In this document: in pieces, positions 39,290-62,744 of the stretch | Layout: every line of letters begins with the position of its first letter | Position numbering within the stretch: the first letter of the stretch is position 1 | Assembly (NCBI GenBank): GCA_964016885.1 | Contig: OZ024741.1 | Coordinates: 101,122,001-101,186,000, forward strand | Source of the DNA: Eledone cirrhosa | Taxonomy: Eukaryota | Direction: 5' to 3' | DNA: 64,000 nt | The notes under the pieces: generated by a model | Seen by the model: the letters and a program-made list of their open reading frames with translations, nothing else | Told to the model about the DNA's origin: nothing | Databases searched by the model: none | Position numbers and translations under genes: made by a program

Positions 39290-39502
39290 TTGTGTGTGCT
39301 AAATCAAAATTTTAGAAAACAAACAATTTTAATCAAGTTAAAATAGTACCTTTATAAACATTTCCAAATATTTAGATTTATTAGTAAAGTATTTGTTAAA
39401 TTGTCATTTGGAGTAGCTTGAAAGCTTGTTTGGAGTCATTTTTCCAACCCCAGAGGACCACTTTCTTCTAGACCTGCCAAGTAAAAAGAAATGTTTTTCC
39501 TG

Positions 39503-40135
39503 TTAGAGAAGTAGACATACATGTTTAGAATGACTTCGTTTTGATTTGGAATATTCTGATGTTATATCTCCAATGGGTTCTTGTTTTAGCATTAATGAAG
39601 AATTATTAACATCTTTATCTGTAGTGTTTCTAACATTATTTTCAGCATTAACAGGAATATTTTCACCAGGTAGAGATGTTGTTACATCATTGCATTCAAT
39701 CTTTTCAAGTTCATTTTCATTCGGTAAACTTTCCTTACTGTATTCCTTCTGTTCTTTACCTTCACCATCTGAAATTTTGCTCTCTGTTTCTTCTTCATCC
39801 TCTATAGAAATCTTCAGTGCCATATCATCTATTGCTACACCAGAATCCTTGTCTATCTCACAGCAGCTCTGTTTAGTTGTTCCATTAGAAAATCTTTTAA
39901 CACAACACAAATTAGCTGAACTGTTAGCATTTGCTGTTCCAGTAATGTTTTCTGTTAATTTTCCATCAAATATGACCTTACTTTCCAGTTGTTCCTCCAC
40001 CAAGTTTATTTCATTTTCAAGATCTTTTGTTAAACAACTTTCTTCTTTTTCTTCTTCCTCATCTTTTTTTTTTCCTTCTCTATTTTCTTTATCATTATCA
40101 TCATCATTTCTTTCTTTCAACCATGTTACAAGACT
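39503..40135 (-). CDS. TIR-domain gene, terminal exon: acidic disordered tail ending in a CaaX box (CLLL)
   Basis: Acceptor gttttttttttcaAG, phase 0, 210 open codons ending SKSKRSHSKHVCLLL-TAA. AATAAA on the - strand at 39377-39382. Confidence 0.75.
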   Translation of the reverse strand, partial: SLVTWLKERNDDDNDKENREGKKKDEEEEKEESCLTKDLENEINLVEEQLESKVIFDGKLTENITGTANANSSANLCCVKRFSNGTTKQSCCEIDKDSGVAIDDMALKISIEDEEETESKISDGEGKEQKEYSKESLPNENELEKIECNDVTTSLPGENIPVNAENNVRNTTDKDVNNSSLMLKQEPIGDITSEYSKSKRSHSKHVCLLL

Positions 40136-41528
40136 CTTGAAAAAAAAAACCCAAAGAATTACAAAGAATTTTTAAAAAAGAATATAAATCATCATCATAA
40201 TCATCGTCATTATCAACATCATCATCATCAACACCCATCACTACAACCATCATCACCATTATCTTATTATCAGCAGCAACACTCACCACAACCACTACCA
40301 TTATCATTTTACGTTTGTTTTTCCATGCTGGCATAGGTTGCATGGACTGACATAGACCGTGTCAGTACTTATTTGAACTTACTGCCCAGCTAGACAAATC
40401 AGAGGACCTGGTCCATCTCATACATTTAGGAGCATAATGATAAAATATATTCAATAATATATATCTTTATGTTCTGATATTTGGGCATAGCACTTCCACT
40501 AATCCACTGCCCCTAACAGATGCTTTATTTTATTGTTTCCTGAAGACTAAAAGACAAAATTGACCTCAGAGCTGAGCCAGATCAAATACTACCAAACATT
40601 TAGTCCAAGGCTCTAACAATTCCACAAATTCACTGCCATTAATAGGTACTTAATTTTACCAACTCCTGAAGAATGAAAGGCAACATTGATCTTAGAAAGA
40701 TTTAAACAAAAGTCACAAGGCTTTTTTCCCAACACTCTAATGATTCTGAAAATCTACCATTTTGAAGGTTAGTGGGTGGATAGTTACTGGAAAAAATATT
40801 AACAAGAAGGAAGATTAAGCATGGTGAATCTCTGGGGGTTTTTATTTTTAAATGAATTTTGTTGTTCCAGCAAAAATGGCTAGAGCATTTATTGACTACA
40901 GTAAAACTGGTCAATAACAAAACCAACACAACTATTAAGATATATCTGAAACAATGGTTAAAGAATATTGTTATATTTGTGGAGGGTCATGTCATAATAT
41001 TGCCAGAAAAATATAGTAAAACACACTCAGGAATACTTTCTTGAACAAGAAGTTTGTTTAACCCTTTCATTACCATTTTTCAAACAATTTTAAAGGATTT
41101 AATTCAAAACAATTTTAAAAGATTTAATTAAATAACTAACTTGCTGATATTTGGAGCATAGCTTACATAAAATTATGATGGATGGTTCTGAGATAAATAT
41201 ATATAAACACTTTAAAACAATTTTGTATCATTGAACTAGGTTCAGACTGTTTGGTGTTGGAACAGTTAAACATCATTTTATTTTTCATCTACCTACTAAT
41301 GCACTGACTATTCTTACTTCAGCCCAAAACAGAAGTATGGTAGATCAACTTAGTGAATATGAGGTGGGGTGGTGAGCTAGATCATACAAGAAGTGACTGC
41401 TGCTGATTATGCACAATAAAGAAATGATTGTTTGAATTATTAAAAACAGAAATAATATTAAATTTAAAAAGAAGGTAGAAAAGGAAAACATTTTGAAATT
41501 TTCTTTAAGAAAAATTTGTTTCACATAC

Positions 41529-41607
41529 TGCATCTAAAGCCAAAACTGGATCCTTTTCTGGTTGGATGTCAAAAACATTAACAAGATTTCCAACACTATC
41601 TGAAGAG
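41529..41607 (-). CDS. TIR-domain gene, small exon
   Basis: Acceptor ttttctttcccAG and donor GCA|GTATGT. Phase 2-0 bridges the two flanking exons exactly. Encodes SSSDSVGNLVNVFDIQPEKDPVLALDA. Confidence 0.7.
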
Positions 41608-42244
41608 CTGGGAAAGAAAATAATTTCATATATGATTAAGTGCTTGTGGGTGTATGTGTGTGTGTGCAGTGACAAACTTGGTCTAAAAATATTGGTAGCC
41701 AGGAGACAAAAAGGGCCCGCCCACAACTACACTGTTATCATTTAATTTTTATAACAAATAAATTTCAAAAAATATGCAAGTGGAAACAAAAAGATGCAAT
41801 TAAAAGTTTTGTGAAAAAATGTATATTTTCTACTAATTGTAGTGTACATATACTGTACTTATTACTGACAGTATACAGTAATACCAAATGTAAATACAGG
41901 ATGTTATAACTGAATTTTTAAATAAATTTTTTGATGAATGTTTAGTATATATCAATTTCAATATTTTCAATGAAGACTTTTTATTGTCAAAGAGATAACT
42001 AAGTTTTATAATAAAAATTATGGCCTTGCAGTCAATACCACATCTTCCGTAAAATTGTAAAGTCAAAATACAGATTATAACAAATATTAAGCAGTTCTTA
42101 CTTCTCCAGTAAAATATATACATCCACAAAATAGCAGTAATGAGCTTCGGTCTGTCACACTCAATATGTGTGTGTGTCTGTGCATGTACATATGTATATA
42201 TACATTTATATATGTGTGTGTGTGTGTGTATATATATATATACC

Positions 42245-44350
42245 ATCATCATCATCGTTTAACATCCATCTTCCACACTAGCATGGGTTTGGACGGGAAT
42301 TTTCCCACTTGAGGCAAGATTGGTTGTCTCGCTCGTATAGGACTATCTGGCAGGTTTTCTATGGCTGGATGCCCTTCCTAACACCAACCACATTTACAGT
42401 GTGGACTGGGAGGTTTTTACCGTGTTACCTACACGGCCACATTACAGCGTGGACTGTGGGTTTTTTTGTCGTGACACCTACATAACCTCATTTATTTAGG
42501 ACTGGATGTTGTGGTACCAACATAACTTTACATCAAAAGGGGTGGGGGTAGTGGGATGGCGGTGTATTTTGGTAAGGGGTGCCTACTGACTGTAGGTTTC
42601 GCTTTGCACTTAGGCAAGGCGGGTCTTCTGTGTTAGTGCGTAGCGACAAAGATCTCGGTCCAGTGGCATTGTCTTGGAGAGGTGTAAGTGTGTGAGGTCG
42701 GAATTTATCAAGTCGTCCCAGGTTTTTCTGGGTCTGCCTACTCCATGACTACCGTCTATTTTGATCGCCCTGCACTTTTTTATACAGCTGTCGTCTTTCA
42801 TGCGCATCACGTGACCATACCAACGTAGTCTTCTCTCGAGTAAACAACATCTGATCCCTCTTATTCCTAATTTCTCCCTTAGTTCGTTTATGCTTTGCCG
42901 TTCACGTATATTACTATTACACATCCAGCGGAGCATGCAAGCTTCGTTCCTCTCCAGTCTGCGTATATCCTCTGCACACAATGCCCAGGTCTCACTGCCA
43001 TGCAACATTGCTGTTCGTATGCAGGCATCATACAGCCTGCCTTTCATTTTTAGAGAGAACCCTTTAGCGGCTAATAGTGGTATAAGCTCTCTGAACTTTT
43101 TCCATCCAGTTCTGACTCTAGCTACTGTACTTTCAGAGCACCCTCCACCGCTGCTGATTTTGTCACCCAAGTAACAGAAGGTGTCCACAATTGCTATAGA
43201 ACCATCTGTGCAATGGAATGAGCTAGTATTCTGTGGGCACTTGCTGCTACTTATTGCACCAGAGCACCGGCCGCATATAAAATCTATGTTCTTAGTTAGC
43301 TTACCTGTGATCCCACTACATCTTTTATGCACCCATACTTTGCATTTGGGACATAAAATGGAGTTTCTACCTACTCCTTTCCTACACACTGAGCATGACC
43401 ATTTCCCGGATGGGACCGGTGCCCTATTTTCCTTCCTACAAACTAGAACTTTAGTCTTAGACAGGTTAATTTTAAGGCCTTTTGATTCTAGGCCATGCTT
43501 CCATGTTTGGAATTTCTTCTCTAGTTCGGCCATTGATTCAGCTATGAGCGTTAGATCATCTGCGTATAGGAGTTCCCATGGGCAGCCAGTCTTGAACTCC
43601 ACTGTTATAGCCTGAAGGGCAATAATAAATAGTAGGGGGCTAAGAACGGAACCCTGATGAACACCTACTTTTACGCTAAATTCTTCACTATATTCGTTGT
43701 TAATTCTAACCTTGCTGACTGTTTATTCATACATGGCTTGTATAGCTCTCACAAGCCATTCATCAACACCTAGTTTTCTAAGAGCCCACCAGATAATGGA
43801 ACGGGGGACTCTGTCGAAGGCTTTCTCCAAGTCAACAAAGGCTAAGTATAGGGGTTTACTTTTAGCTAGGTACTTCTCCTGTAGTTGTCGTACAATGAAG
43901 AGAGCGTCTGTTGTACTTTTACCTGACACAAACCCGAACTGCTCTCTGATTAGTTGCGCTATTACTTTTTCTATGACCTTCATGACCTAGTCAATTAATT
44001 TAATTAAAAACAGACACTCTGTCACATCTTCTGGTAAGGATATAATCTACCTGGCTGGTATGTTCCCCTGATCTGTAGGTGATCAAGTGATTGTCTCATT
44101 TTTTGAAGTTAGTGTTACAGATAGTTAGGTTATTTGCGTCACAGAATTCCAGGATTCTGGAGCCTTCCTCATTTCTAGTGCCAAACCCATAGCCTCCGTG
44201 GATTCCGTCATAGCCGTCACAATGTTGTCCATTTAGGTCGCCAGCAATAATTATATAGTCACTGTTGGTTATTTGGGAGGTAGTGAGCATCAGTGTCTCA
44301 TAGAATCTGTCTTTTATAGCGCCAGGCAGTCCGGATTCAGATTCTAGAAT
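42245..44350 (-). mobile_element. RTE family B LINE, internally deleted (EN fragment fused to RT)
   Basis: IAGDLNG...ILEFCDANNLTICNT joined at about 44005 to IKLID.VMKV...; 330-aa C-terminal ORF; (TGA)n tail. Confidence 0.92.
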
Positions 44351-44374
44351 TCTGCGATGCCAATGACATGTCGA

Positions 44375-47148
44375 TATGTAACACAAAATTCAAAAACCCT
44401 GACAACCATCTAATCACCTATAGATCAGGGGAGCATTCTAGTCAGATAGATTTTATCCTCATCAGAGGACGTGACAGATGGACGGTCGTAAACATAAAAG
44501 CCTTCCCTAGTGAGGAATGTACCTTCCAACATAGCTTAGTTGTCAGCGACCTCACAGTCAGAACTAGACGAACCTGGAAACAGAGGCCAACCTGGAGAAG
44601 AAAGACCTGGAAGCTGAAAGACCCCTCAGCCAGTAACAGATTTAAAGATATTTTACTCAACGCCTACGACAGTAAAGAAGAACAGATAAAGACATTCAAT
44701 GTAGAAGAGCACTGGGAGTTCCTAAAAAATAACTTACTAGAGGCGACGGATGCGGTCTGTGGCTGGAGTAAGACCACAAGCAGGAGGAGAATGACTTGGT
44801 GGTGGAACAATAAGGTAGATGAGGCAGTTAAGGCCAAGAGACAGGCATGGAAAGAATGGAAGAACAGGGAGAGCAGCGTACATTACATAGAGACCAAGAG
44901 GGAAGCTAGGCGACAAGTATACTTAGCTAGGAGGGAAGCAGAGGATAGAAAATTCAAGCATGTTTTGTAACGTGAGGACCAGAAACAGGAGGTGTTCAAG
45001 ATTGCGAGGCAGTGTGTCAGAGAGAATTGTGATGTCATTGGAGAGAAGTGTATCCAGAATGATAAAGGTGAGCTTGCCCTCACAAGTGCTGAGAAGAAAG
45101 ATGCATGGAAGAGTCATTATGATAGATTACTAAATGAGGAGAATGCATGGGAAGAAGAGACCCTACCCAAAGTAGACCCTATAGAGGGGCCAGCAGTACA
45201 AGTCAGCAGCAGCGTAGTAAGTAAGGCAATCAAAGATATGAAGATGGGGAAGGCAACCGGTCATTCGGGTATAGCTGCCAAGATGCTGAAGGCATCTGGG
45301 TCTGTAGGTCACACTATAACCACACGTATTGTTAACCAGGTAATACTAGAAGGTGTCATACCAAAATATTGGTGCAGTAGCATCATTGTCAACTGCTACA
45401 AAGGTAAAGGTGATGCACTCGATAGAGGTATAAAGCTGATGGACCAGGTCATGAAAGTAACAGAAAGAGTTATAGCACAGTTGATTAGGGACCGGGTGAA
45501 ACTAGATGAGATGCAATTTGGGTTTGTACCAGGAAGAGGCACTACTGATGCCCTCTTCCTTGTGAGGCAGTTACAGGAAAAGTACCTAGCTAAAAGTAAG
45601 CCACTCTACCTGGCATTCGTCGATCTCGAGAAAGCCTTTGACAGAGTTCCACGTGTTGTAATCTGGTGGCCTCTTAGAAAACTAGGAGTAGATGAATGGC
45701 TTGTGAAAGCTGTACAAGCCATGTTTAGGGGAGCAGTCAGCAAAGTTAGGATTAGCAATGAGTATAGCGAGGAATTTAGCATACAGGTTGGGGTCCACCA
45801 GGGCTCTGTTCTTAGCCTTCTCCTGTTCATCATAGTCCTGCAGGCAATAACGGAGGAGTTTAAGACCGGATACCCATGGGAACTCCTGTATGCTGATGAC
45901 CTCGCACTTATAGCTGAATCTATGGTAGAACTAGAGGAGAAATTCCAAACTTGGAAGCAGGAACTAGAAAGAAAGGGTCTCAAAGTCAACATGACAAAGA
46001 CTAAGGTCTTTGTAAGTAGATGAGAAAACAGAACCCAGATCCCCTCAGGGAAATGGCCTTGCTCAGTATGTAGGAAAGGTGTAGGTAGGAACTCCATTCT
46101 CTGCCCCAAATGCAAACAATGGGTACACAAGAGATGTAGCGGGATCTCAGGAAGCTTAATTAAGAATGTAGGCTTCACATGCAGCAGCTGTGCTGGGACA
46201 GCAAGCAGCAAACAGCCACAGGAAACAAGTACCACCAATCTCTGGGAGGGCTCTGTAGAAACAGTAGACAACTTCTGCTACCTAGGTGACCGAATTAGCA
46301 GCGGAGGTGGGTGTTCAGAGAGTACAATAACTAGGGTAAGAACGGGATGGAAGAAGTTCAGGGAACTACTACCACTGCTAGCTGCAAAAGGCTTCGCCCT
46401 CAAAATGAAAGGCAGACTGTATGATGCGTGTATCCGAACAGCGATGTTACATGGTAGTGAGACCTGGGCGCTGAAGGTGGAAGACTTACGTAGATTAGAG
46501 AGAAACGAAGCCTGCATGCTCCGATGGATGTGTAATAGTAATATACGCGAACGACAAAGCATAAATGAATTGAGAGAGAGACTGAGCATAAAAGGAATCA
46601 AATGCTGCGTGCAGGAGAGGCGGTTGCGTTGGTATGGACATGTGATGCGTATGAAGGATGACAGCTGCATAAAAAGGTGCAGAGCACTAGAAGTCGATGG
46701 AAACCGCGGAGTGGGGAGACCCAAGATGACCTGGGATGAGGTGATAAAAGCCGACCTTACCCAATTACACCTCTCAAAGGCAATTACACATGACCGTGAC
46801 CTCTGGCGTCACGCAGTAATACAGAGTACCCGACCTCCCATGGGTACAAGCTGAAGCATATAGACAATATGCCCCTACACCCTCCCTCTGCAAGGTGGTC
46901 GTGGAATTGCCACGGCAAAAAAGCACCCAGCCCACACTGTAAAGTGGACATGTAGGCGCCACAGAAAAAGCACCCAGCACTCACTGTAAATGAGATTGGT
47001 GTTAGGAAGGGCATCCAGCTGTAGAAATCAAGCCAAATCAGTTCCTGTATGAGCAAGGCATGGTCACCCGACCAGACACTGCCCACAACAGGACAACCCG
47101 TCTAACCCATGCTAGCATGGAAGAACGGACGTAAAACGATGATGATGA
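44375..47148 (+). mobile_element. RTE family B LINE, longest copy (EN C-terminus, RT, Cys finger)
   Basis: SQIDFIL, WWWN, QFGFVPGRGTTDA and LLYADD; nonsense codons at 44968-44970 and 46021-46023; (TGA)n tail. Confidence 0.95.
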
Positions 47149-47326
47149 TACATGTGTATATATATACATATATACATATGTATATATATATATACATATA
47201 TATACACACATATATATATTACATACATATATATATACACACATATATATATATACATATATACATATATATATACACATATATATATATATACACATAT
47301 ATATACATACATATATATACACATAC

Positions 47327-47357
<31 letters not shown>

Positions 47358-47770
47358 TATATATATATATACACATATATATATACATATATATATACAC
47401 ATATATACATACACATATATACATACACATATATACATACATATATATATACACACATATATACACATATATATATACACCCATATATATATACATACAT
47501 ATATCATCATCATCAATGTTTAACGTCCGTGTTCCACGCTTGCATGGGTTTGGAAGAGTGATTATCTTGCTCGCATAGGACTATCTGGCGGGTTTTCTAC
47601 AGCTGGATGCCCTTCCTAACACCAACCACATTTACAGTGTGGGGCTGGGAGGTTTTTACCGTGTTGCCTACACGGCCACATTACAGCGTGGACTGTGTGG
47701 CGGGTTTTCTACAGCTTTGACGAAAGTCGAGCGATCCTTTTATACATATATATATGTATACACACACACA

Positions 47771-47848
<78 letters not shown>

Positions 47849-47893
47849 GTGACGAAACATAAGTCAATTGCATGAACTCATAATCCTTTATTT

Positions 47894-47949
47894 ACTGCTA
47901 TATATATTTCGGTGATAGCCATTGAATGGCTATGACCTCATCAGGCAGT
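47894..47949 (-). ncRNA. Hammerhead ribozyme, inverted copy of H1
   Basis: Exact reverse complement of 48142-48197. Confidence 0.88.
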
Positions 47950-48141
47950 TAGTCAGTTCTTAGATATGCCAGCTCTGTGTGTACAGTGTTGATGGCATCA
48001 GACCCTTGGGACATATGTCCCAAGGGTCTGATACCATCAACACTATACACACAGAGCTGGCATATCTAAGAACTGTATGTCCCAAGGCTCTGATACCATC
48101 AACACTATACACACAGAGCTGGCATATCTAAGAACTGACTA

Positions 48142-48197
48142 ACTGCCTGATGAGGTCATAGCCATTCAATGGCTATCACCGAAATATATATAGCAGT
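48142..48197 (+). ncRNA. Minimal type-I hammerhead ribozyme (element H1)
   Basis: ACTGC-CTGATGA-[GGT C ATAGCCAT TCA ATGGCTAT C ACC]-GAAA-TATATA-TA^-GCAGT: intact core, stem I ACTGC/GCAGT, palindromic stem III. Confidence 0.88.
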
Positions 48198-49040
48198 AAA
48201 TAAAGGATTATGAGTTCATGCAATTGACTTATGTTTCGTCACTATTATAACTCCGGAATTTATATCTTCCTTGAGTGCTCCCTATCCGCCTACTGAAGTA
48301 CTGGATTTTACCAACACTTACTTTCTTGCTTACATACATATATGTATATATATACATATATACATATATATACATACATATATATATACATATATATATA
48401 TCCACATATATATATATACACATATATATATATACACATATATATATATATATACACATATTAATACATACATATATATATGAATATATATGTACACACA
48501 CATATATATATACACACATATATATACACACACATATATATATACACACATATATATACACACACATCTATATATACACACACATATATATATATATATA
48601 TACACACACATATATATATATATACACACATATATATACACACACATATATATATATACATATATATATATACACACATTTATATGTACACACATATATA
48701 TAGACATATATATATATATATATATAAACACACATATATATACATATATAAATATATATACACATATATGTATACATATATACATATATATACACATATA
48801 TATATACATATATACATATATATATATACATATATACATATATATATTTATATACATATATACATATATATACATATATACATATATATACATATATACA
48901 TACATATATATATATACATACATATATATATATATATATACACACACATATATACATATATACATATATATATATACATATATATACACATATATATATC
49001 ATCATCATCATCATTTTACGTCCGCTCTTCCCAGCTCGCA

Positions 49041-49132
<92 letters not shown>

Positions 49133-49391
49133 GGAAAAAATGAAACGATATTTCATTTCCCACTCTTAGTACGGCTGTTACTTAAATATAAGTATGTACA
49201 CGTACATACATATATGTATACCGACGTACAGTAGTATGTATATATATACATACATGCACACATATATATATGCACGTATGGATTCACCGAACATTTATTA
49301 TAATGCTCGGTGTGTTTGTAAACAAACATCCCGTATTAAGCCGTAGTGTCTAGCAACCACCGTTGCTCGTTTGTTCAACACTGACAAAGGA

Positions 49392-49434
49392 ACGCTGTAC
49401 TAGTTTCAAGCTTGTTAGCTATCGTCAGCAACGT
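49392..49434 (-). ncRNA. Hammerhead ribozyme, inverted copy of H2
   Basis: Exact reverse complement of 49739-49781. Confidence 0.78.
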
Positions 49435-49738
49435 ATACCTTCCTGCCAGATTGTTGAACGTATATACTTACCTTATGCATATTAACGGCTGAGTAGCCCA
49501 ATTTGCATATCGAGTGGGTATACATATATGTATACCCACATATATGTATGTACGTGTACATACTTATATTTAAGTAACAGCCGTACTAAGAGTGGGAAAT
49601 GAAATATCGTTTCATTTATTCCGTTTATCGTTTTCGGTGCACCCGGCCGATTAACCCACTCGATATGCAAATTAGGCTACTCAGCCGTTAATATGCATAA
49701 GGTAAGTATATACGTTCAACAATCTGGCAGGAAGGTAT

Positions 49739-49781
49739 ACGTTGCTGACGATAGCTAACAAGCTTGAAACTAGTACAGCGT
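49739..49781 (+). ncRNA. Minimal type-I hammerhead ribozyme (element H2)
   Basis: ACGTTG-CTGACGA-T AGCT AACA AGCT T-GAAA-CTAG-TA^-CAGCGT. Stem I is 6 bp with one G.U; there is a U.U pair at the base of stem II. Confidence 0.78.
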
Positions 49782-50859
49782 TCCTTTGTCAGTGTTGAAC
49801 AAACGAGCAAAGGTGGTTGCTAGACACTACGGCTTAATACGGGATGTTTGTTTACAAACACACCGAGCATTATAATAAATGTTCGGTGAATCCATACGTG
49901 CATATATATATGTGTGCATGTATGTATATATATATATATACATACTACTGTTCGTCGGTATACATATATGTATGTACGTATACATACTTATATATATATA
50001 TATATATATATACATATATACATATATATTCACATATATATATATATATATAATATATATACATATATACAGATATATATACATATATACACATTTATAT
50101 ATAGATATATACACATATATATACATATATACACACATATATATACATATATACACATATATATATATACATATATACACATATATATATATATACACAT
50201 ATATATATATATATACACACATATATATATACATATATACACATATATATATATATACACATATATATATATACATATATACACATATATATATATATAT
50301 ACACATATATACACATATATATATACACATATATACACATATATATATACATATATACACATATATATATATATACACATATATACACATATATATATAC
50401 ACATATATATATATATATACACACACACATATATATACATATATACACACATATATATATACACACACATATATACACACATATATATATATATATATAC
50501 ATATATACACACATATATATATACATATATACACACATATATATATACACACACACATATATATACATATATATACACATATACATATATATACACATAT
50601 ACATATATATATATACATATATATACACACACACATATATATATATATATCCATATGGTGGCTGCCAACTCGTTTTCGAGTACGGCTACTACTTTATATC
50701 CATGTAGGAGAACCCCTACCGATGCGCTGAACGAGTGTGACTTTTTAGTCCAGCCAGCGACTTGAAAACTCTGGTACAAACACTACACCTGTGACAATTA
50801 TTGACACATAGTGCTGGGCCCATGGTACCATGTGACGACAAGTGCAGAGAGATCTCCAG

Positions 50860-51265
50860 ATATAAAGCAATGCCTGCGCCGTGAAGCTTTTATAGTGAGC
50901 AAAGGCACTGCACAAAGCCAGTCCCACTCTCTTAACCAAGATGATATTTACCAAAAAGAAGAACAAGTCAACATCATTGGATACCATCAGGGTTGCAGGT
51001 GTTATATCAGAGTTTTCCTTCTCCTAGAATTCTGCCTTGACAAAGGCTAAGGGGTCATCTCTCCCGGTGATTTTGGATGGCCATTGACTCTTAAGAGCTC
51101 CTTTGCCCTTTTGACAGGTTTTGTTTTTAGTCCTGCAGGATGTCCAAAGTCACCCTCCTCACCAAGAAACCTTGGTGGGGTTGCCAGTTTAGTCGCCAAC
51201 GACCCGACCATGGGACAGGTTGTACTGGGATACATGTTACCAGTAGCACCAACTGGTGACCTGAC
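50860..51265 (-). mobile_element. RTE-type 5' leader without ORF
   Basis: Homologous to 11547-11725 and to the CTAGGAGAAGG...GAGAGTGGGA(T/C)TGGCT leader at 11870-12050 and 26790-26970. Confidence 0.7.
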
Positions 51266-51583
51266 ATATATCCATATATACATATATATACACACATATA
51301 TATATATATATAAACATATATATACACACATATATATATATATATACGTATATACATATATATACACATATATATATACATATATACACATATATATATG
51401 CATATATATATACACATATATATATATATACACACACATATATATATACATATATATACACACATATATATATATACATATGCAAGCGTGGAACATGGAC
51501 GTTAAACCGATGATGATGATGATACATATATATATACATATATACATATATATACATATATACATATATATATACATATATAC

Positions 51584-51632
<49 letters not shown>

Positions 51633-51739
51633 CATATATATATACATATATACATATCATCATCATTATCATCATCATCATTTCACGTCCACTTTTCCCT
51701 GCTTGCAAGGGTGGGATATATATATATACATATATACAC

Positions 51740-52385
51740 ATCATCATCATCATCATCATCAACGTTTAACGTCCGTGTTCCACGCTTGCATGGGTTTGGA
51801 CGGGGGTAGTCCCACTTGAGGCAAGAGTGATTGTCTTGCTCGCATAGGACTGTCTGGCAGGTTTTCTACAGTTGGATGCCCTTCCTAACACCAACCACAT
51901 TTACAGTGTGGGTCTGGGAGGTTTTTACCGTGTTGCCTACACGGCCACATTGCAGCGTGAACTGTGTGTTTTTTTGTCGTGACACCTACACGATCTCATT
52001 TGTTTCGGCCTCGATGGCGCGGCACCAACATAACTTTACATAGAACGGGGTGGTGTGGATGGGGTGGGGGTGGTGGGGGTGGGACGGGGTGTATTTTGTT
52101 AGAGATGCCTACTGGCTGGAGTAGGTTTTACTATATATTTAGGCAAGGCGGGTCTTCTCTGTTACTGAGTACCGCCAAAGGTCTCGGTCCAGTGACATTG
52201 TCTTGGAGAGGTGTAAGTGTGTGATGTCGGAGTTTATCAGCTCGTCCCAGGTTTTTCTAGGTCTGCCTATTCCGTGACTACCGTCTATCTTTATTGCCCT
52301 GCACTTTGTTATACAGCTAGCGACTTTCATGCGCATCACGTGTCCATACCAACGTAGCCTTCTCTCGAGTAAACAACATCTGATA
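51740..52385 (-). mobile_element. RTE family B, 3' fragment
   Basis: [16 protein letters not shown]..., 3'UTR and (TGA)n. Confidence 0.9.
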
Positions 52386-52489
52386 TACACATAAATATAT
52401 ATACATATATATATACATATATATATATATACATATATACACATATATATATATATACATATATACACATATATATATATATACATATT

Positions 52490-52535
<46 letters not shown>

Positions 52536-52650
52536 TATACATATATACATATATATATATATACATATATACATATATATATATATACATATATACACAT
52601 ATATATGTATATACATATATACACATATATATACACATATATATATATTT

Positions 52651-52836
52651 CTAAGGCGGGTAAAATTCCCGAGATCCATTGACGAGTTCTCTCCAGCAGT
52701 CTCTGTCCCTCATTATCGCTGCCATGTCCTGCGTCTCCAACAGACCAGTGTCTGTCCTTAGGGCATCAACATACGTTAACCTTGGTCTTCCTCTTCTAGT
52801 GTGTCCATGTAGGGGCTCCCAAAGGAGCACTGAGTG
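52651..52836 (-). mobile_element. 3' fragment of a third RTE-like LINE family
   Basis: [23 protein letters not shown]...MRDRDCWR. Confidence 0.7.
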
Positions 52837-52855
52837 CATATATATATATATACAC

Positions 52856-52888
<33 letters not shown>

Positions 52889-52897
52889 TACACATAT

Positions 52898-53742
52898 CAT
52901 CATCATCATCATTTTACGTCCGCTTTTCCCTGTTTGCAAGGGTGGGACGGGTCTTATTCAGCACAGCATCTCTCCACTCGTCACGGTCCTTCGTCATCTC
53001 CACCGTGAGCTTCAATGATTTGAGGTCTGTTCTCACCATCTCCGCCCATGTTTTTCGTGGTCTACCTCTACCACGTCTTCCTTCAACTGGCATTTCCTGG
53101 CACTTCTTCACCCATCGGTCATCCTCCATGCGCATCACATGTCCATACCATCTCAGACTCCTCTCCCGTACACTACATTCTATCCCTCTCAGACACAGTT
53201 TCTCTCTCAACACATTTATGCTGGGTCGTTCACGCACATTTACACTGCACATCCAACGGAGCATGCTTGCCTCATTTCTCTCCAGCCGTCGCATATCCTC
53301 TGCAGTTGCTGCCCATGTCTCACTACCATGCAGCATCGCGCTCCTCACGCAGGCATCATACAACCGGCCTTTCGTACGCAGGGAGAAACCCTTCTTCGTC
53401 AAAAGAGGAAGCAGCTCCCTAAACTTCTTCTAACCCGTCCTTATTCTAGATACTATGGCCTCGGAACACCCTCCTCCCATGCTAATCTGATCTCATAGGT
53501 ACCGGAAGCTATCCACCACTTCTATAGCGCCCTCCTGCATTTGAAAAATGTGTCTATCAATGCGACTTCTACTGTCTAATTTCCTTGTACATCTACTGCA
53601 TACATATTTCTCCCTACCTTTTAGTTTGCCTGCTATCCCGCTACATCTCTTGTGTACTCAGGATCTGCATTGTGTGCATTTTATAGAATTTATGCCAGTT
53701 CCTTTTCTGCATATCGAACATGGCCATTTCCCTGACGGTATC
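52898..53742 (-). mobile_element. RTE family B (subfamily of 4030-4491), 3' fragment
   Basis: GKWPCSIC...WVHKRC and KGRLYDACVRSAMLHGSETW; tail. Confidence 0.9.
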
Positions 53743-53754
53743 ATATATACACAC

Positions 53755-54098
53755 ATCATCATCATCATCATTTCATTTTACGTCCGCTTTTCCCTGCTTG
53801 CAAGGGTGGGACGGGAACTGATTCTGGCTTGATTTCTACAGCTGGATGCCCTTCTTAACACCAACCTCATTTACAGTGAGTGCTGGGTGCTTTTTGCCGT
53901 GGCACCTACATGACCACTTTGCAGTGGAATGATAGGGACCCCAGTCCCTATCATCTCATTTCTACAGCTGAGGAAACTGGAGCAATGTGAAATAAAGTGT
54001 CTTGCTCAAGGAAACAACACATCACCCGGTCTGAGAATTGAACTCACAACCTTTCGATTGCAAGGCCAATGTTCTAACCACTAAGCCATGTGCCTCCA
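53755..54098 (-). mobile_element. tRNA-SINE (same family as 20501)
   Basis: Full head, body and RTE tail. Confidence 0.88.
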
Positions 54099-54663
54099 CA
54101 TATATATATATATATATATATACTCTCCACATATATATATATATATATACATATATACACACATATATATATATATATACATATATACACACATATATAT
54201 ATATATACATATATACACACATACATATATATACATATATACACACATACATATATATACATATATACACACATACATATATATACATATATACACACAT
54301 ATATATATATATATATATACATATATACACACATATATATATATACATATATACACACACATATATATATATATACACATATACAGATTTGTTTTATAAA
54401 TAAATATTGACATACCCGGAAAAATATATATATACACACATATATATATATATATATATACACATACATATATATATATATACACATACATATGCATAAA
54501 CATATACATATATATATATATATATATATACACATACATATGCATATACATATATATATATATAAATATATATATATATTAAAAATATTTAGAAGACCAT
54601 ACGCTATCAGTTTTAAAGTAGTGACTGTGTCACTCACTTCTTTTTGGCGAAAGAAGGGAGAGA

Positions 54664-54705
54664 AGCTGACAGTCTGTTTCACGCTGGTTGGCATTCATCA
54701 GGGCC
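54664..54705 (-). ncRNA. Hammerhead H3, inverted copy
   Basis: Minus strand GGCC-CTGATGA-ATGCCAACCAGCGT-GAAA-CAGACTG-TC-AGCT. Confidence 0.7.
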
Positions 54706-55130
54706 ACATACATATATATATACATACATATATATACACATATATATATATATACATATATATACACATATATATATATATACATATATATACACATATA
54801 TATATACATACATATATATACACACATATATACATACATATATATACACATATATATATATACATACATATACACATATATATATACATACATATACACA
54901 TATATATATACATACATATACACATATATATATATATATACACACACATATATATATATATACACACACATATATATATATATACACACACATATATATA
55001 TACATATATATATACACATATATATATACATACACATATTAATACATACATATATATATTTGTATATATATGTACACATATATATATAGGGCCACATACT
55101 TATATTTTCGGCTGAATCAGGGGCGTACGT

Positions 55131-55172
55131 GGCTCCGATGAACGCCAACCAGCATGAAACAGGCTGTCAGCT
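55131..55172 (+). ncRNA. Hammerhead H3, first tandem copy (core U4>C)
   Basis: GGCT-CCGATGA-ACGC CAACCA GCAT-GAAA-CAGGCTG-TC^-AGCT, 293 bp upstream of the second copy. Confidence 0.6.
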
Positions 55173-55423
55173 TCTCTGCCTTCTTTCACTGAAAAGAAGT
55201 GACACAGTCACTACTTTAAAACTGATAGCGTATGTCTTCTAAATGTTTTTAATTAAACATACGGTATATTGCCAAATATACTATACATACATTCATGTGT
55301 ACATCGCTATTTCAGAACACCAATCCTAATACCTAATCGCTCTGTATAATCAGTCCCTGATTATTACTGGAATTCTATAAGAAACCAGCTTCTATAATTT
55401 TCGGCGAAAGCAGGGGAGTACGT

Positions 55424-55465
55424 GGTTCTGACGAATGCCAACCAGCGTGAAACAGACTGTCAGCT
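55424..55465 (+). ncRNA. Minimal type-I hammerhead ribozyme (element H3, second tandem copy)
   Basis: GGTT-CTGACGA-ATGC CAACCA GCGT-GAAA-CAGACTG-TC^-AGCT. Confidence 0.75.
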
Positions 55466-55657
55466 TCTCTGCCTTCTTTCACTGAAAAGAAGTGACAAAG
55501 TCACTACTTTAAAACTGATAGCGTATGTCTTCTAAATGTTTTTAATTAAACATACGGTATATTGCCAAATATACTATACATACATTCATGTGTACATCGC
55601 TATTTCAGAACACCAATCCTAATACCATATATATCTATATGTATATATACATATATA

Positions 55658-55712
<55 letters not shown>

Positions 55713-55914
55713 CTCCTCATCATCATCATTTAACATCCATTTTCCACACTAGCATGGGTTAGACAAGTTGTCCAGTTCTGAGACAGCCATGTCGGAGGAC
55801 CGTGTTTTCCTCACAGAACATACATACACAGAACATATACATACATATATATATGTTCATATATATATATATGCATACACATATACATAAATATATATAT
55901 AAAATCATAAACTT

Positions 55915-56157
55915 ATAAATTCTACAACTTTAGCCAACAAAATATGGGAACTAGAGAGGAAGGGAGCTGAATACAAGATTTCTTGGTCTGTCCTGGGATT
56001 CGCCGACCAGTACAAACATGATATGAGTATTTGTAATATCTGTATACTAGAATTGTACTTTATAATTACTGAAAAAAATTTAATAAATAATAAATTAGAA
56101 TGGGTTTTCCACTGTAGACATAAACACTTTAAAACTTTCTATTATGATCCTGACTAA
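55915..56157 (+). mobile_element. Penelope-like GIY-YIG C-terminal fragment
   Basis: STTLANKIWELERKGAEYKISWSVL...CNICILE...LINNKLEW..HCRHK. Confidence 0.7.
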
Positions 56158-57036
56158 CATAGAATCCGATCCCACAACTATACCCTTTAGACATATAAAT
56201 AATACTAGTGATTGACCTCAACTCTGTGTATTCATCACTATAGAATATATTAATGGTGACAGAGAATACTCCACATGGCCCAGCCTTATCAAATAGGAAC
56301 ATTAAGATGTCACAATGATTTACCACTACCTGCTTGAAGTGCATGATAAGGAATTCTTTAAATCTCAGTGCAAGTGCCGACACTGATCAATGGTCATGGA
56401 ACTACCCTTTATTCAACAAATCAACAGCCACTTCTGTTAACTATGTTAGCCCTACCTCATGGAGAGAAAAAAAAATAATGATGATGGTAATACTATCAAT
56501 GCTAATGATAGAGTTATTACTGTTGTTATTGCTTGGGAATTCCTCTATAAATTTACATAGTTTTTCTCTCAATATAGTTGTTGATATTTCAATACTTTTA
56601 TGACTTTATATAGCCTAAATTTCTCTTTAGCAACACACCTTCTCTCTCTATATATATAAACATTTCCCTGTATGATTAAAAACATTATTAGACTTTGATA
56701 ACTGATATGTAAGACTGTTGATGCAGAATATTGGAATTTGAATTCTCCCAAAACAGACATCGGCTTAGCAGTTTTAGATGTACTCACATATTAATGAAAT
56801 ACATGTCAGTTACATAAATAGTGGAATTGGTGTATTCATGTAATTTATTAATTTCTATATAAATACTCCAGGAATTACCTTTATTGTACCTACGGTTAAT
56901 CACCACAGAAAAACTATGAAAAACAATTCATTTGTTGAGTCAAAAACCACTATGTTGACACAGTCTTCGATTTCAAGTTACACAAATTCAACTAATGGAC
57001 ACCGATTACTACTATAATCTCTCTCTCTCCCTCTCT

Positions 57037-57100
<64 letters not shown>

Positions 57101-58391
57101 CCTACCTATGTATCTATCTATCTCTGGACAATAAAGACAACAGCATCTATCTATTTACCTACCTATTTTTCTGTCTGTTTATCTATCAGTATGTCTATCT
57201 AACTAGCTATCTATCTATCTACCAATGTATATTTATCTATCTACCCATTTACCTTTCTATCTACCTGTCAATCAATAGTTATCTATTTATGAATATTTAC
57301 CAATATATTTATCTTCGGACAAGAACAATAATAAAGCCCAAATACATATAGAGGTAAGTAGGCACCTAAGTGATAGATAAGTAGATAGAGAGACAGATAG
57401 ACAGACAGGCAGGCAGAAAGTCAGACAAACAGACTAGATACATAATTTAGTGAATATATGTTTGATAATAATTAATGAAAATGTGGGAGAAAATTATTGT
57501 AACTAATTTAAATGAATGTAAAATGAAATACAACAATTATTGTTGTGACAAGAGGGAGAAGATCAAGGAAAAGTGAGGATTCAAGTATCTTTATATAGAA
57601 TGTTGTAATCAATGAATTATCAAATTTAATATTTTTTACTATAAACCCTGTCATTTGTTATGGGTACTATGCTAGTATATATATAGAGAGAGATAAATGT
57701 TAAAAATACCAGTATAGCTAAGAGCTTATTGAATAGGAATAAAAATAAAAAAAGGAGGGCACACAAGACAAAGACAATGGAAAAAACAGACAGTCCCTGC
57801 TCTACAGTCAATTTCTAGAAATCTTTCAGTGCATTAAAATTGGAACTATTCATTCCAGTGCATATGGAACAGTAACAGAACAAAACAGGAAGACATAGAA
57901 CAAATTGTTCCTTTCAATGAATTACACAACACAAATATAGCCAAAATACTCTACAAACTAATGTGCTTCTAATGAAAAGGAAGAGATAAAAATGTGATGT
58001 GCAATAGCTTAGCCAAGAAGAGAAAAATAAAAATAAATAGTTCAGACTGTAGTCCTATAAACAGAGAGCACAAAATAAATGACACCTCATCCAGCTATTT
58101 TGTATGACTACAGTCCTAACTATTTATTTCTATTTTCTCCTTATCTAAGCTATTTTTATCCCTTCAGTTGAAGCACATTGGTTTATAGCATCTTTTTTGG
58201 GGGGCTATATTTGTGTAATTTATCGAAAGACAATTTGTCCTATGTCAGTATGTTATAGAAAATAATATTTAAAACGATTTTTACAAATAAAAAAATAGTT
58301 TTCTCTATAACCAATAAAACCATCATCATATTTGATGACATGGATAAATAAATTAGTTAGTTATTTGATTAATAAAGGGTCCAAAACTCAC

Positions 58392-59002
58392 CTGGTCGTA
58401 ACAGTAGAAATAATATCTAAAGCTAATTTCTGCAAAGCGATATGTTCTGAAAGTTCATAGGAATAATTCCCAGATATTTCTGAAACTGTAACAGTCACTG
58501 AATATTTTGATTTAACAATTTTTGGTTTAACATACCAGCAGGTGTCAGTAAACACTACACTGTAAGGCAAGATTTCAAAATATGCCAGAAATGTCGGTAT
58601 CTTTCCAGTACAGATGAAATGCAAAAGCTTCTGCTTCGATTTTCTCTGACGATTAAAGGCTATGTTTAGTTCTTCGAGAGCTTTTGATGATGCAAAATAT
58701 TCTTCACATATAAACATTACAATTACATCTGCTTCTTCAAGTAATGCCAGTCGATCATGAATCGAAGTATTGAAGAGAAGGACTTGCATATCTGAGAAAT
58801 AGTTTTCAAGAATTGAAACCAAAATGGCAGCAAATTTCATGTCATGGGGTGCAAAACAAAACAGTATTTTGCAGGGCTTTTTGTAAATACCACAGTTTAC
58901 TTTAGAAGTAATTATTTTCCCCTTCAAGTCATAATTAGCTTCAAGTTCTCTTTGTCTAAACTGATATAAAAGTTTCGACAGAGAAACGTTTTGGTTTTTC
59001 AA
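58392..59002 (-). CDS. TIR-domain gene, exon (second TIR)
   Basis: Acceptor ttttctttttt-ctgaacAG and donor AG|GTGAGT, phase 0-2. Contains ILFCFAPHDMKFAAIL...LEEADVIVMFICEEYFASSKALEELNIAFNRQR. Confidence 0.85.
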
Positions 59003-59477
59003 CTGTTCAGAAAAAAGAAAATAAACAAATTTTAATTATAATAATAACATTTTGTGTATAAATATATAATATGATAAATATATAAAAATGTATGGCAGGG
59101 AGGGCTTTAGACATACCAAGGATATAACAATCTTCCTAGTGCTTGTACCATGTACACAGCACTTAGTGGTTGAAGTTAGGAAGGACATCAGACTTACACT
59201 TTTTAAAAGGTTTTATATATATATATATTAATGTGGTAGTTGTGTGCCATATATTGGTATATATTATAGATTAGTAAAACATTATCTGATAGAGAACTCA
59301 AACAAAATATAGTAGAAAGATATATTTTATATATAGTAGGTAGAGCCACCAACAAGGCAAAACTTATGTGTAACTGTCATCATTTATGTGTGTGTGTGTG
59401 TGTGTGTGCATGTTTTATCATTGAGTTGGATAGGTTGTTATGGTTCAAGACTAGACAGTTCAGTGTAATGCATCTTG

Positions 59478-60280
59478 CTTATACTAAAGTTTTAGTAACT
59501 AGGAAAGAAGACAGAGAAGTGGTTTGCTCGATATGCATAAAAAGAGTAGGTAGAAACTCCACATGATGTTCATGTAAATCTTGGGTACGCAAGCGGTGTA
59601 GTGAGATTTCAGGCAGATGAACTGAAAATCTAAACTGAGTATGCAGTAGATACACAGGGATAGTTGGTAGTAAGAGCATCAATAAAATAAATGTTTTCCA
59701 ATCTTAGGAAGGACCCATAGAAATGGTGGATAGCTTCTACTACCTAGGTAATATAATTAGCAGTGGAAAATGTTGCTCAGAGAGCATAATAGCTAAAATA
59801 AGTACAAGATGGAAAAAGTTCAGGGAGACACTACCTCTGTTGAACAAAAGGTTTCTTTCTAGGACTGAAAGGCCAGCTGTATAATGCCTGTGTAAAATGT
59901 TGAATGATAGGGAGACATGAGCAGTGAATGCAGAGAAATGAAAAGTCTGGAAAGAAATGAAGTGAGCATGCTCCAATGGATGTGTAATGTTAATGTGCAA
60001 GAACAATGAAGATGAGATATGAGAAAAAAAACTGGGAATAAAAGGAATCAGATGTAGTGTGCAAGACTGTGCTAGTATGGGCATATGATGTTTATATATG
60101 ATGATAATTAGGTGAAGATGTGCCTTGGCAGAGGAAGACCTAGGCAGAGGTTGTGACCTCAAGTCACTGAAGCTCAAAATTGAGATGATAAAAGACTGCA
60201 ATAAGTTAAGAGATGCTGTCCTGGAAAAGACACGTCCAACATGCAAGCATAGAAAAACGGATGTAAACAATGATGATGAT
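59478..60280 (+). mobile_element. Old decayed RTE family B fragment
   Basis: TKVLV...CSIC...VGRNS remnants and a (TGA)n tail. Confidence 0.75.
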
Positions 60281-60301
60281 ATATAGATATGAAACCCTTA
60301 C

Positions 60302-60499
60302 CTTGTTTTTACTTGTCATCCAACTAAATTCTTGTTGCAAAGTTTTGTTTTTGTAACACTTATTTAGAAGAGGTGACAAGCTGTTCATGACAGGTACCAA
60401 ACAATCACCTCGAGCATCTATCATATGTAGAGGTCCAAACCAGTGTGGAATTGATGCAACATCAGCAATACAAACAGGTACTAAGACCATAGGGTGTGT
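60302..60499 (-). CDS. TIR-domain gene, exon
   Basis: Acceptor tatttatttcAG and donor AAG|GTAAGG, phase 0-0. THPMVLVPVCIADVASIPHWFGPLHMIDAR completes the TIR (beta-D LVPV, IP, ID). Confidence 0.82.
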
Positions 60500-61401
60500 C
60501 TGAAATAAATACATCAATTGATTAGTCAACGGAAACTCTTTCGTTACCATATTTCTAACAAAAGATATTGCTTATGATTTTCAAGTAATTTTGAAAATAA
60601 TAAAAAATTTTGAATCATCTGATAAAATATTTTATTTTCTCATTATTAAGCTGGGTATTGGAGCATAACTTAAAGTTTCTAACATAAAACTATGATGGAC
60701 AGTGTAGGTACCATGATAAAAAAGCACCCAGTACTCACTGTAAATGAGGTTGGTGTTAGGAAGGACATCCAGCTGTAGAAATCAAGCCAAAATCAGTTCT
60801 GTATGAGCAAGACATGGTCACCTGACATGGCATTGCCCACAACAGGATAATTCATCTAACCCATGCTAGCGTGGAAGAGTGGATGTAAAACAGTGATGAT
60901 GATGATGATATAAACTTTAAACTAAACAACTTAATATTGCAGAACCATATTCTAACAAGTAGTTAATTGTCCCTTAAGACAGATAGTGTTGTCATTAAAA
61001 GGTACTTATACTAATGGCATGTTTTGGGTGGAGGCAGTATTTTTATTTAGAAAATAAAAAAAATACTTCCAAGAAACAGAAAGGCTACTGTGAAGGCTCA
61101 TGTGGATGTAGAAGACACACTCCAGCTGCTGACCCACAGACAAGTAGTCTCCTCTCTCTCTGCCTCTTCAACCCACTACAACAATGATCTCTGATCCTTA
61201 GAGATGGCTGGTTGGTCTCATGCCAGCTTCACTCAAGCACTCCTGACTTACTTGCCTTTTCTAGCCTCATCATGCATGTTGTATCCAATGCCCAAGGTCC
61301 CACACTAGCCACTACACACAATCCTTTCTGCTCAAAACAACATCCCTCTGGAACTCCACATCTTTTCTACAAAAACAAATTAATAACAAGGATTTTCTCA
61401 C

Positions 61402-61544
61402 TTTTTCTTCAGAGATACTCAAAGCAATAGCAATACTGAATTCTTCTTGGCACATAAGAGATTCAAAGTATGCTGGTGCAATGAGAATCACACAACATTT
61501 GGAACATTCCAAAGCTCTGTAAATTGACTGCTGCCAATCACTAC
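61402..61544 (-). CDS. TIR-domain gene, exon (first TIR visible in window)
   Basis: Acceptor ttctattccAG and donor AAA|GTGAGA, phase 1-0. GSDWQQSIYRALECSKCCVILIAPAYFESLMCQEEFSIAIA fits the TIR pattern G..W...I..AL..S...(I/L)...P.Y..S..C..E...A. Confidence 0.85.
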
Positions 61545-62343
61545 CTGGAATAGAAGAATAAAGAATAAACATATATAATGAATAAGCTGAGAGAATAACT
61601 GGGTATAAGAGGAATCAGATATCATGTGCAGGAGAGAAGACAGTGTTGGTGTGGATATGTGATGCATATGAATGATGATTATTGGGTGAAGAAGTGCTAA
61701 GTGATCTCAATGGAAGAAAGCTACAGTAAAAAACAAATGATGGCCTGGGAAGTGGTGCTAAGACTAGATCTCAAAATACTGAACCTCAAAACCTCACAGA
61801 GATATCAAGGGAATGTGATAAGTGAAGGATGCTGTGCTGGAAAAAACCCATCCAACCCATGCAAGCATGGAAATAGTCATGATGATGATGACTTTCATGA
61901 TACTAGAGTGATAAAGAGAGAGATAATTGCTGGAACTTTCCAGAACAGAGATATCCAATATGTATTTATCCACTTGACACAGACATGGGTAAGTGATTAA
62001 TAAGTTTGCTTTGCAAACATGAAGCCCTGGGTTGCATCCTACTTCATGGTGTCTTGGGCAAGTGGCTTTACTATAGCCTTAGGTTGACCTAAGCCTTGTG
62101 AATGAAATTTGGTATATGGAAGCAATGTAGAAGCCTGTCAAATGGACTGTACCTGTAATTCAAAGGTCTGGCTTTCTCATTGTGTCAAATTGATTCAACC
62201 TGTAAATTACATTCAGAGTACACGTGTCTGTGGAATACTCAACCATTTACACATTAATTCACATGTTCAACATCAAAACCAACAGAGGATCCACCATTTA
62301 TCCATTACATTCATATGATAAATAGAGAGATAATTGATAGAAC

Positions 62344-62743
62344 TGTAGTAAGAGTTGCCTCCCCTGCCACGACAATTGAATCGCTGTTCCCTAGACAGGA
62401 AGTAGGTGGAGTTGCTTCCCTTTGGGATTGACCAAACTCCCTAGTGGTCACTTCCGGTCAACAGAGATAAAAGGAGCGATTAACCGCGAAATCTCTCTCT
62501 CGCCTCCTGATTCCCGAAGTGGTAACATCTTCGACCATAGCTGGATTCTTTCTGGACGACCCTTTCGTTACCAGCACAATCCAGCTCACCAGCCTGACAA
62601 CTTCACAATGGCATTATTGCCATCGGGTAACAACCCTTTACCTTATACACCTTTGACTTCTATGAAGTAAAACTTTATCACACACACCAGTACTCTTTGT
62701 CTTTTATATTATGTTGCATGTGCACCGATATCTATTTCCTAAA
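62344..62743 (+). mobile_element. 5' LTR of a Gypsy (CsRn1-like) retrotransposon
   Basis: TGTAGTAA...TTCCTAAA imperfect inverted ends, immediately followed by a PBS. Confidence 0.75.
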
Positions 62744-62744
62744 G

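Follow-up and report, generated by a model that had tools for sequence, protein, structure and literature searches.

The stretch of DNA analysed, hereafter the window, is a 64,000-nucleotide (nt) segment of the Eledone cirrhosa genome (GCA_964016885.1, contig OZ024741.1, positions 101,122,001 to 101,186,000; G000:C2:101122001-101186000), and the gene in question lies on its minus strand. Five coding exons in the window are the spliced back half of a real octopus-type gene, and seven more were located upstream of the window. From its sequence, the protein is predicted to carry, in order, a Macro-fold domain, three TIR domains (TIR1 to TIR3), an acidic disordered tether of 210 residues and a C-terminal CaaX motif. 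The features are listed below, with exons numbered within the twelve-exon coding prediction; X4 is the run whose contig joins the window exons.

61545-64000, minus strand: 3' part of the intron leading to the seven upstream exons, placed by tblastn with octopod orthologues
61402-61544, minus strand: coding exon 8, residues 411-458, TIR2 core containing C442 and E445, the candidate catalytic residue (codon 61443-61441); Pfam TIR_2 and contig X4
60302-60499, minus strand: coding exon 9, residues 459-524, carrying the last part of TIR2 plus a helical linker; both flanking introns are joints with CT..AC ends
58392-59002, minus strand: coding exon 10, residues 525-728, with a linker plus TIR3, here degenerate (E635, codon 58672-58670); Pfam TIR_2 and contig X4
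41608-58391, minus strand: intron of 16.8 kb in which fragments of retroelements and simple repeats occur; the X4 record coordinates run from 2340 to 2341 across it
41529-41607, minus strand: coding exon 11, residues 728-754; contig X4, 52-59% identity to octopod orthologues
39503-40135, minus strand: coding part of the last exon, residues 755-964, with the acidic low-complexity tether, basic patch, CaaX motif and stop; unbroken in contig X4
39350-39502, minus strand: 3' untranslated region of ~150 nt, with AATAAA at 39382-39377; hexamer and end of contig X4
G000:C2:101191629-101207515, minus strand, outside the window: seven upstream exons (85515-85380, 84050-83876, 82874-82760, 75933-75739, 75206-75016, 73650-73477 and 69873-69629 in extended numbering); tblastn

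The initial annotation had assembled five phase-compatible exons into about 554 amino acids (aa), and its motifs were all found in place on the minus strand: SLMCQEEF at 61461-61438, SSKALEEL at 58690-58667, SKSKRSHSKHV at 39550-39518, CLLL at 39517-39506 and the stop at 39505-39503. The exons have AG/GT ends and compatible phases, and they form a single open frame of ~554 aa ending in CLLL and the stop. Run X4 supplies a single contig of 3,205 nt (depth 18.6) that holds all five without gaps or other letters, in contiguous record coordinates (1386-1531, 1532-1729 and 1730-2340, then 2337-2419 and 2420-3205). For two introns the record lists joints with CT..AC ends; the last two junctions were taken from the record coordinates, one of them bridging two separate alignments. 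The contig is unbroken from 40135 to 39350 and passes unspliced through the CAT/GTATGT site at 39520 to the CLLL end and stop. Two possibilities that would have undone the original reading, splicing at this site just before VCLLL and assignment of the last two exons to another gene, are thus contradicted by the contig. This splice evidence comes from one contig of one sample, with the kind of run not on record, and contigs drop rare isoforms. The contig ends at 39350, 27 nt past the AATAAA at 39382, and we infer a poly(A) site from the hexamer (39382-39377) and this end. The contigs of X1-X3 are unspliced into the last intron, through 39301-41019. A processed retrocopy was considered as the origin of the joined contig and is disfavoured by the absence of mismatches, the single genomic match and the unspliced X1-X3 contigs over 39301-41019. 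A search of the genome revealed a single locus for the gene, the TIR3 exon giving one match.

Of 1,092 candidates obtained with the TIR3 exon as query, three were longer proteins (66-73% identity) belonging to O. bimaculoides, O. sinensis and Argonauta; identity to the octopod orthologues is 79-82% in exon 9. The seven upstream coding exons were then located by tblastn with these orthologues over 200 kb of neighbouring genome, up to 21.5 kb outside the window, in agreement with the earlier placement of the N-terminus beyond it. They code for residues 1-410, comprising the Macro-fold domain (1-~205), TIR1 (~214-350, with E289) and the start of TIR2. They are a sequence prediction from the orthologues. 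All twelve exons are GT-AG and phase-compatible, and the predicted protein has 964 aa. The X4 contig holds 1,388 nt upstream of 61544 compared with 1,231 nt of predicted coding sequence, which fits that sequence plus a short leader. The tandem TIRs first described are real, although the full predicted protein comprises three TIRs, preceded by a Macro-fold domain at the N-terminus that is encoded outside the window. The stated lack of transmembrane (TM) and leucine-rich repeat (LRR) segments now extends over the whole 964-aa protein, in which the highest 19-residue hydropathy is 1.6 (inside TIR3) and no LRR motif was found. An architecture unlike that of TLR, MyD88 or SARM1 was likewise borne out: the Pfam scan of the full-length octopod orthologues returned TIR families only, in three TIR stretches (139.5 and 146.5 bits), and the N-terminus is of the Macro type.

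The Macro fold was assessed on the O. bimaculoides orthologue, which is 80% identical in this domain. A model based on an alignment of 121 sequences gave a predicted local distance difference test score (pLDDT) of 83.9 and a predicted template modelling score of 0.75, with the tail disordered; the single-sequence fold of the same protein (P0001) reached a pLDDT of 31.6 and was not used. According to the model, the N-terminal domain is a Macro fold. Its top Foldseek matches were macroH2A1.1 (E 8e-7) and Af1521 (E 1.2e-6), and VIA aligned 177 residues with the PARP14 macro domain (Z 16.9 and an rmsd, or root-mean-square deviation, of 2.9), with Z 16.8 to PARP9 macro 2 and Af1521 and Z 12.3 to the EcThsA Macro (rmsd 3.3, 173 residues). 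An Atlas structure search with the Lottia homologue likewise gave a Macro fold. Pfam Macro and ThsA_Macro had no match in the two full-length octopod proteins or in any of 38 homologues. In the second row of the Atlas search, a bacterial cluster (commonest phylum Bacteroidota) of DUF4145-annotated proteins with a very similar Macro domain was also noticed (TM-score 0.81).

Within the Macro domain, the adenine-binding Asp of a G-D-I/L motif (D26) aligns with the GDIT of OiMacroD; 78 of 89 eukaryotic rows have it, as do 109 of 111 bacterial ones. Gln142 aligns with the Tyr of the second phosphate loop of OiMacroD (G-V-Y-G type). In macrodomain biochemistry, the aromatic residue of the MacroD second loop has a role in catalysis, and its replacement by Gln suggests that the domain is a reader rather than a MacroD hydrolase. 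S42, Y48, W85 and E103 are near-invariant across bacteria and eukaryotes and could mark a different Macro chemistry.

The three TIR domains were found to be unequal. They were compared in a eukaryotic alignment of 96 rows (39 including this gene and 57 of 63 later rows, six bacterial-type fusions having been dropped), in which the rows are not independent because paralogues and isoforms are included. In TIR2, S376, Y377, C442 and E445 are kept in all 94 rows with a residue there. The catalytic position of TIR1 is Gln in 70 of 93 rows and Glu in 8, five of which are this gene, the two octopod orthologues and two close relatives. TIR3 has the Glu in 71 of 83 rows, with the Cys missing in nearly all and the beta-A Ser/Tyr missing in octopods. 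A profile of the bacterial TIRs scored TIR3 at 33.5 bits and TIR1 and TIR2 at 112 and 108 bits; the difference between the latter two is uninformative about the ancestral repeat, because the profile was built from TIR1-aligned matches. With Pfam TIR_2 (cut-off 28), the TIR2 exon scored 31.8 bits and the TIR3 exon 25.2 bits (E 2.4e-5), below the cut-off. In the orthologue model, TIR1 and TIR2 matched solved TIRs with Z 15.6 and 12.8, the SARM1 TIR aligning with TIR2 by VIA at Z 12.8 (rmsd 2.4, 124 residues), and TIR3 is followed by a C-terminal beta-hairpin and helix in exon 10. The glutamates previously placed at the catalytic position thus differ in standing: since the TIR2 site is invariant and TIR3 lacks the Cys and the beta-A motif, E445 appears a strong catalytic candidate and E635 a weak one. 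The choice between a lipid-anchored adaptor and an NADase (an enzyme cleaving nicotinamide adenine dinucleotide, NAD) had been left undecided; conservation favours the enzyme.

The tail encoded by the last exon contains 50 D/E in 210 residues, and its pLDDT is below 50 in the orthologue model. Although tail identity among homologues is only 12-45%, 50 of the 83 eukaryotic rows that reach TIR3 end in CaaX (X = L in 33, I in 6, other in 11), whereas of 112 presumed bacterial rows just one does, at a Cys frequency of 2.6%; the motif is, judging from these counts, under selection. The concern that orthologues might lack it did not hold. The CaaX-bearing homologues span cnidarians, lophotrochozoans and ambulacrarians, with ends such as CIIL (O. 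sinensis), CKLI (Argonauta), CSLF (Nematostella), CVLI (Lottia), CQIL (Pecten), CSLL (Tubulanus) and CHLL (Saccoglossus). The polybasic character ascribed to the tail by the initial annotation is modest, with 4 K/R in positions -15 to -5 and 1-6 in homologues. By the specificity of geranylgeranyltransferase I, C-a-a-L directs geranylgeranylation, and the CLLL end would likely lead to this modification. The O. bimaculoides model P0001 was observed to lack the acidic block and CaaX present in O. sinensis, possibly through an assembly or annotation error at its C-terminus.

The named eukaryotic homologues belong to cnidarians, molluscs, a brachiopod, nemerteans, an annelid, a flatworm, echinoderms, hemichordates and the thraustochytrid Mucochytrium; no vertebrate, arthropod or nematode name stood among the matches listed in these non-exhaustive searches. 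A search of 1.84 billion representatives gave 177 matches at E <= 1e-30, and most of the 150 listed were Macro-TIR proteins, many of ~340 aa. Named bacterial holders were an Actinomycetes metagenome-assembled genome, a Longimicrobiaceae bacterium and four Chloroflexota loci. The octopod and bacterial Macro domains share a median of 37% and at best 42% identity (profile 172.9 bits), and the TIR of the bacterial module has the Glu in 109 of 111 rows. The module was also found fused to kinase, Hsp70, type VI secretion system (T6SS) sheath (with FHA), NUDIX, GT4, pYEATS, OGFr_N and CHAT/NB-ARC domains, and these fusions apparently represent an undescribed mobile conflict module. None of the 400 genomes sampled from the seed's phylum contained the module, a patchy distribution. 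PADLOC and NCBIfam matched essentially the TIR parts only, and all NCBIfam scores were far under the cut-off. Individual fusions were seen in P0058, P0067 and P0077; P0035, P0039 and P0043; P0069 and P0118; P0151; and P0122, the partners being the T6SS sheath proteins VipA/VipB (FHA in one), Hsp70, NUDIX, OGFr_N and pYEATS. Closely related Macro-TIR genes at L023:6001-7017 and L024:6001-7035 lie in unrelated neighbourhoods of two Chloroflexota genomes; a Uma2-family gene occurs at both loci, perhaps by chance.

A Macro tree of 88 rows (quick method, unrooted, with 55 rows drawn at random from the 112 presumed bacterial ones) splits eukaryotes from bacteria with an unstarred Shimodaira-Hasegawa-like approximate likelihood ratio of 94, and animal phylogeny is broadly followed inside the eukaryotic part. 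P0131, labelled bacterial by default, falls among the animals and has the animal TIR1 signature. Mucochytrium and two relatives (P0087, P0102 and P0140) carry a Macro domain and three TIR-like repeats with no tail and no CaaX, so the TIR triplication may predate the CaaX motif or have moved between eukaryotes. The Glu of TIR1 in octopods and two close relatives (exon 73650-73477 in extended numbering) looks like a reversion, because these nest inside molluscs.

Taken together, we give a probability of roughly 55% to a prenylated, membrane-tethered protein in which TIR2 cleaves NAD+, TIR1 and TIR3 serve as scaffolds and the Macro domain reads ADP-ribose. Prenylation and the flexible tether of ~210 residues would concentrate the protein at the cytosolic face of a membrane, where TIR2 would act as the enzyme. 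TIR1, whose Glu is replaced by Gln in most animals, and TIR3 would provide assembly surfaces or a restraint on TIR2. The Macro domain would be a non-hydrolytic reader of ADP-ribose, a derivative of it or an ADP-ribosylated protein, and would switch TIR2 or feed back on it. A comparable transfer is established for type II Thoeris, in which a Macro domain receives the TIR product (10.64898/2025.12.03.692087; PMC11204291), and an animal TIR screen reports that non-TLR animal TIRs make cyclic ADP-ribose in a Glu-dependent manner (10.64898/2026.04.20.719644). The module may derive from a bacterial conflict protein, with the TIR triplication and CaaX tail added in eukaryotes, and its role would probably be in defence or stress signalling. 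A fuller account is offered tentatively, as a possibility to be doubted more than believed: before cnidarians and bilaterians diverged, a bacterial Macro-TIR conflict module was taken over as a prenylated, Thoeris-like ADP-ribose sensor and NAD+-signal generator in a single chain, the TIR triplication leaving one catalytic TIR between two pseudo-enzyme TIRs, and cephalopods re-armed TIR1.

Several observations weigh against this proposal. The Macro Asp is Ser in 9 of the 57 newly added eukaryotic rows. Octopods keep the Glu in all three TIRs, so that a single catalytic TIR may not hold for Eledone cirrhosa. Moreover, 33 of the 83 homologues have no CaaX, including P0001 of O. bimaculoides, the short-tailed P0004 and P0196 and three thraustochytrid-like proteins, some of which may be truncated models. 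On the bacterial side, the open reading frames listed for three of four loci are largely those of housekeeping neighbours, with no evident effector partner, and the Macro part matched none of the PADLOC models; because the Macro tree has no root, we only infer the bacterial origin. A single locus and a tree that tracks animal phylogeny are as compatible with a housekeeping role as with an immune one. In the animal TIR screen, activity in E. coli was seen for 12 of the 61 animal TIRs that bear the glutamate, and TLR2, IL-1R9 and IL-1R10 keep the Glu yet were inactive (10.64898/2026.04.20.719644). That screen covered 154 TIRs; a member of the present family may be listed in its Table S4, and the word 'macro' is absent from the main text (10.64898/2026.04.20.719644).

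The inactivity of most glutamate-bearing animal TIRs in the screen, as reported there, would also suit a non-catalytic membrane scaffold, in which the Macro domain reads ADP-ribosylation, the TIRs recruit MyD88-like or other TIR proteins in the manner of a prenylated TIRAP or TRAM, and demands of fold or binding explain why the TIR2 residues are conserved. Two of the three TIRs appear degenerate, and the best PDB sequence matches of the profile are the TIRs of TLR15, TLR2, MyD88 and TIRAP. However, that Ser, Tyr, Cys and Glu are strictly invariant in a single TIR, beside a TIR1 with Gln, is the pattern of a catalytic site, and the bacterial relatives share this site without a TLR pathway; such a scaffold is considered unlikely. 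The Macro domain might alternatively be a hydrolase or product trap, taking away ADP-ribose marks or the products of the TIRs and thereby shaping or damping an NAD+-derived signal, which would make the protein a self-limiting enzyme or signal eraser. The best sequence matches of the Macro profile are indeed MacroD hydrolases (OiMacroD, E 0.0065; YmdB, E 0.013), the near-invariant S42, Y48, W85 and E103 could form a new active site, and bacterial fusions to NUDIX and OGFr_N exist. The canonical motif is of the A-A-N type; here it reads S-A-F, and the MacroD aromatic is replaced by Gln. Furthermore, the top structural matches include the PARP14 macro domain, PARP9 macro 2 and macroH2A (Z differences < 1), and the PARP14 macro and macroH2A1.1 are called non-catalytic in passages of PMC11204291. 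An erasing function is accordingly judged quite improbable.

The C-terminus admits a different reading as well. Over the CaaX codons lies a possible 47-nt cryptic intron (39520-39474, minus strand), with the GTATGT donor, a branch-like CTAAC word and a pyrimidine-rich AG 47 nt on; minor or tissue-specific splicing of it would stop the frame before the Cys and give a soluble form, or the motif might simply go unmodified. The homologues without CaaX, and the loss of rare isoforms from contigs, would fit. The sole spliced contig nevertheless retains the 39520-39474 stretch, and the motif is conserved from Nematostella to molluscs and echinoderms at the end of a poorly alignable tail, which leaves an unused CaaX very improbable. 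If the fuller, tentative account of a domesticated bacterial module is correct, marine invertebrates would possess a Thoeris-like nucleotide circuit seemingly missing from model animals. The family bears on the questions of which animal TIRs are enzymes and what reads their products, since its single chain combines candidates for both, a TIR enzyme and an ADP-ribose reader. The Glu/Gln contrast between TIR1 and TIR2, reversed in cephalopods, offers natural controls, and the ~340-aa bacterial relative is a simple test object for E. coli.

Elsewhere in the window, long reverse-transcriptase-like frames of retroelements were recognised by eye at 42613-46851 (both strands), 9821-11242, 13918-15207 and 24892-26238; two of these frames sit inside the 16.8-kb intron. 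On the plus strand, an open frame of 431 codons (34514-35809) contains some dozen copies of a 7-residue repeat and has an acidic end; it probably represents the final exon of a neighbouring, convergent gene.

In the literature covered, which did not extend to Gerdol et al. 2017, no Macro-TIR or TIR-Macro fusion is described, and no report of a CaaX lipid-anchor signal on a TIR protein and no paper on the ~340-aa bacterial module were found. A Macro-triple-TIR protein is absent from the passages seen of PMC8195603, PMC9503650, PMC7075850, PMC13142454 and 10.64898/2025.12.03.692087. The ecTIR-DC families of Gerdol et al. 2017 are described in PMC6321704 as TIR proteins conserved in invertebrates and reportedly missing from vertebrates; a 1,082-aa Trichoplax TIR-TIR protein is labelled ecTIR-DC 8 in its supplement 1, with no Macro or CaaX marked in the figure text (PMC6321704). 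The Eledone-type family may be an ecTIR-DC group, possibly ecTIR-DC 8; no Trichoplax name occurred among 82 homologue rows.

Compared with known systems, the Eledone protein resembles type II Thoeris in pairing a catalytic-Glu TIR with a Macro domain and in its predicted membrane link. In contrast to the two genes of that system, it is one polypeptide, with a lipid signal in place of TM helices; its family's Macro domain is nearer to PARP14, macroH2A and Af1521 (Z 16-17) than to ThsA (Z 12.3), no effector domain is visible, and the arrangement of a separate ThsB gene with a two-TM Macro effector is absent, the bacterial relatives being fused as well. The bacterial Macro-TIR proteins (~340 aa; P0042, P0046, P0054 and L022-L025) share the Macro clade and a TIR with an S-x-x-C-x-E-E-F/Y site, whereas they have a single TIR, no tail or CaaX, and are often fused to other domains. 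The TIRAP and TRAM adaptors, which use lipid binding and myristoylation, are, as is proposed here, TIR proteins at a membrane without a TM segment; unlike them, the Eledone protein bears its anchor as a CaaX on a long tether and has three TIRs, a Macro domain and an invariant catalytic-type site. The LRR or Ig plus TM, death domain and ARM-SAM arrangements of TLR/IL-1R, MyD88 and SARM1 were not seen, the N-terminus being a Macro domain. With SARM1/TIR-1 and the catalytic animal TIRs (TIR-STING; Hurieva et al. 2026), the protein has in common a predicted cytosolic location, the alpha-C Glu and an N-terminal candidate nucleotide sensor, although in place of ARM, SAM or STING domains it carries a Macro domain, three TIRs and a C-terminal CaaX.

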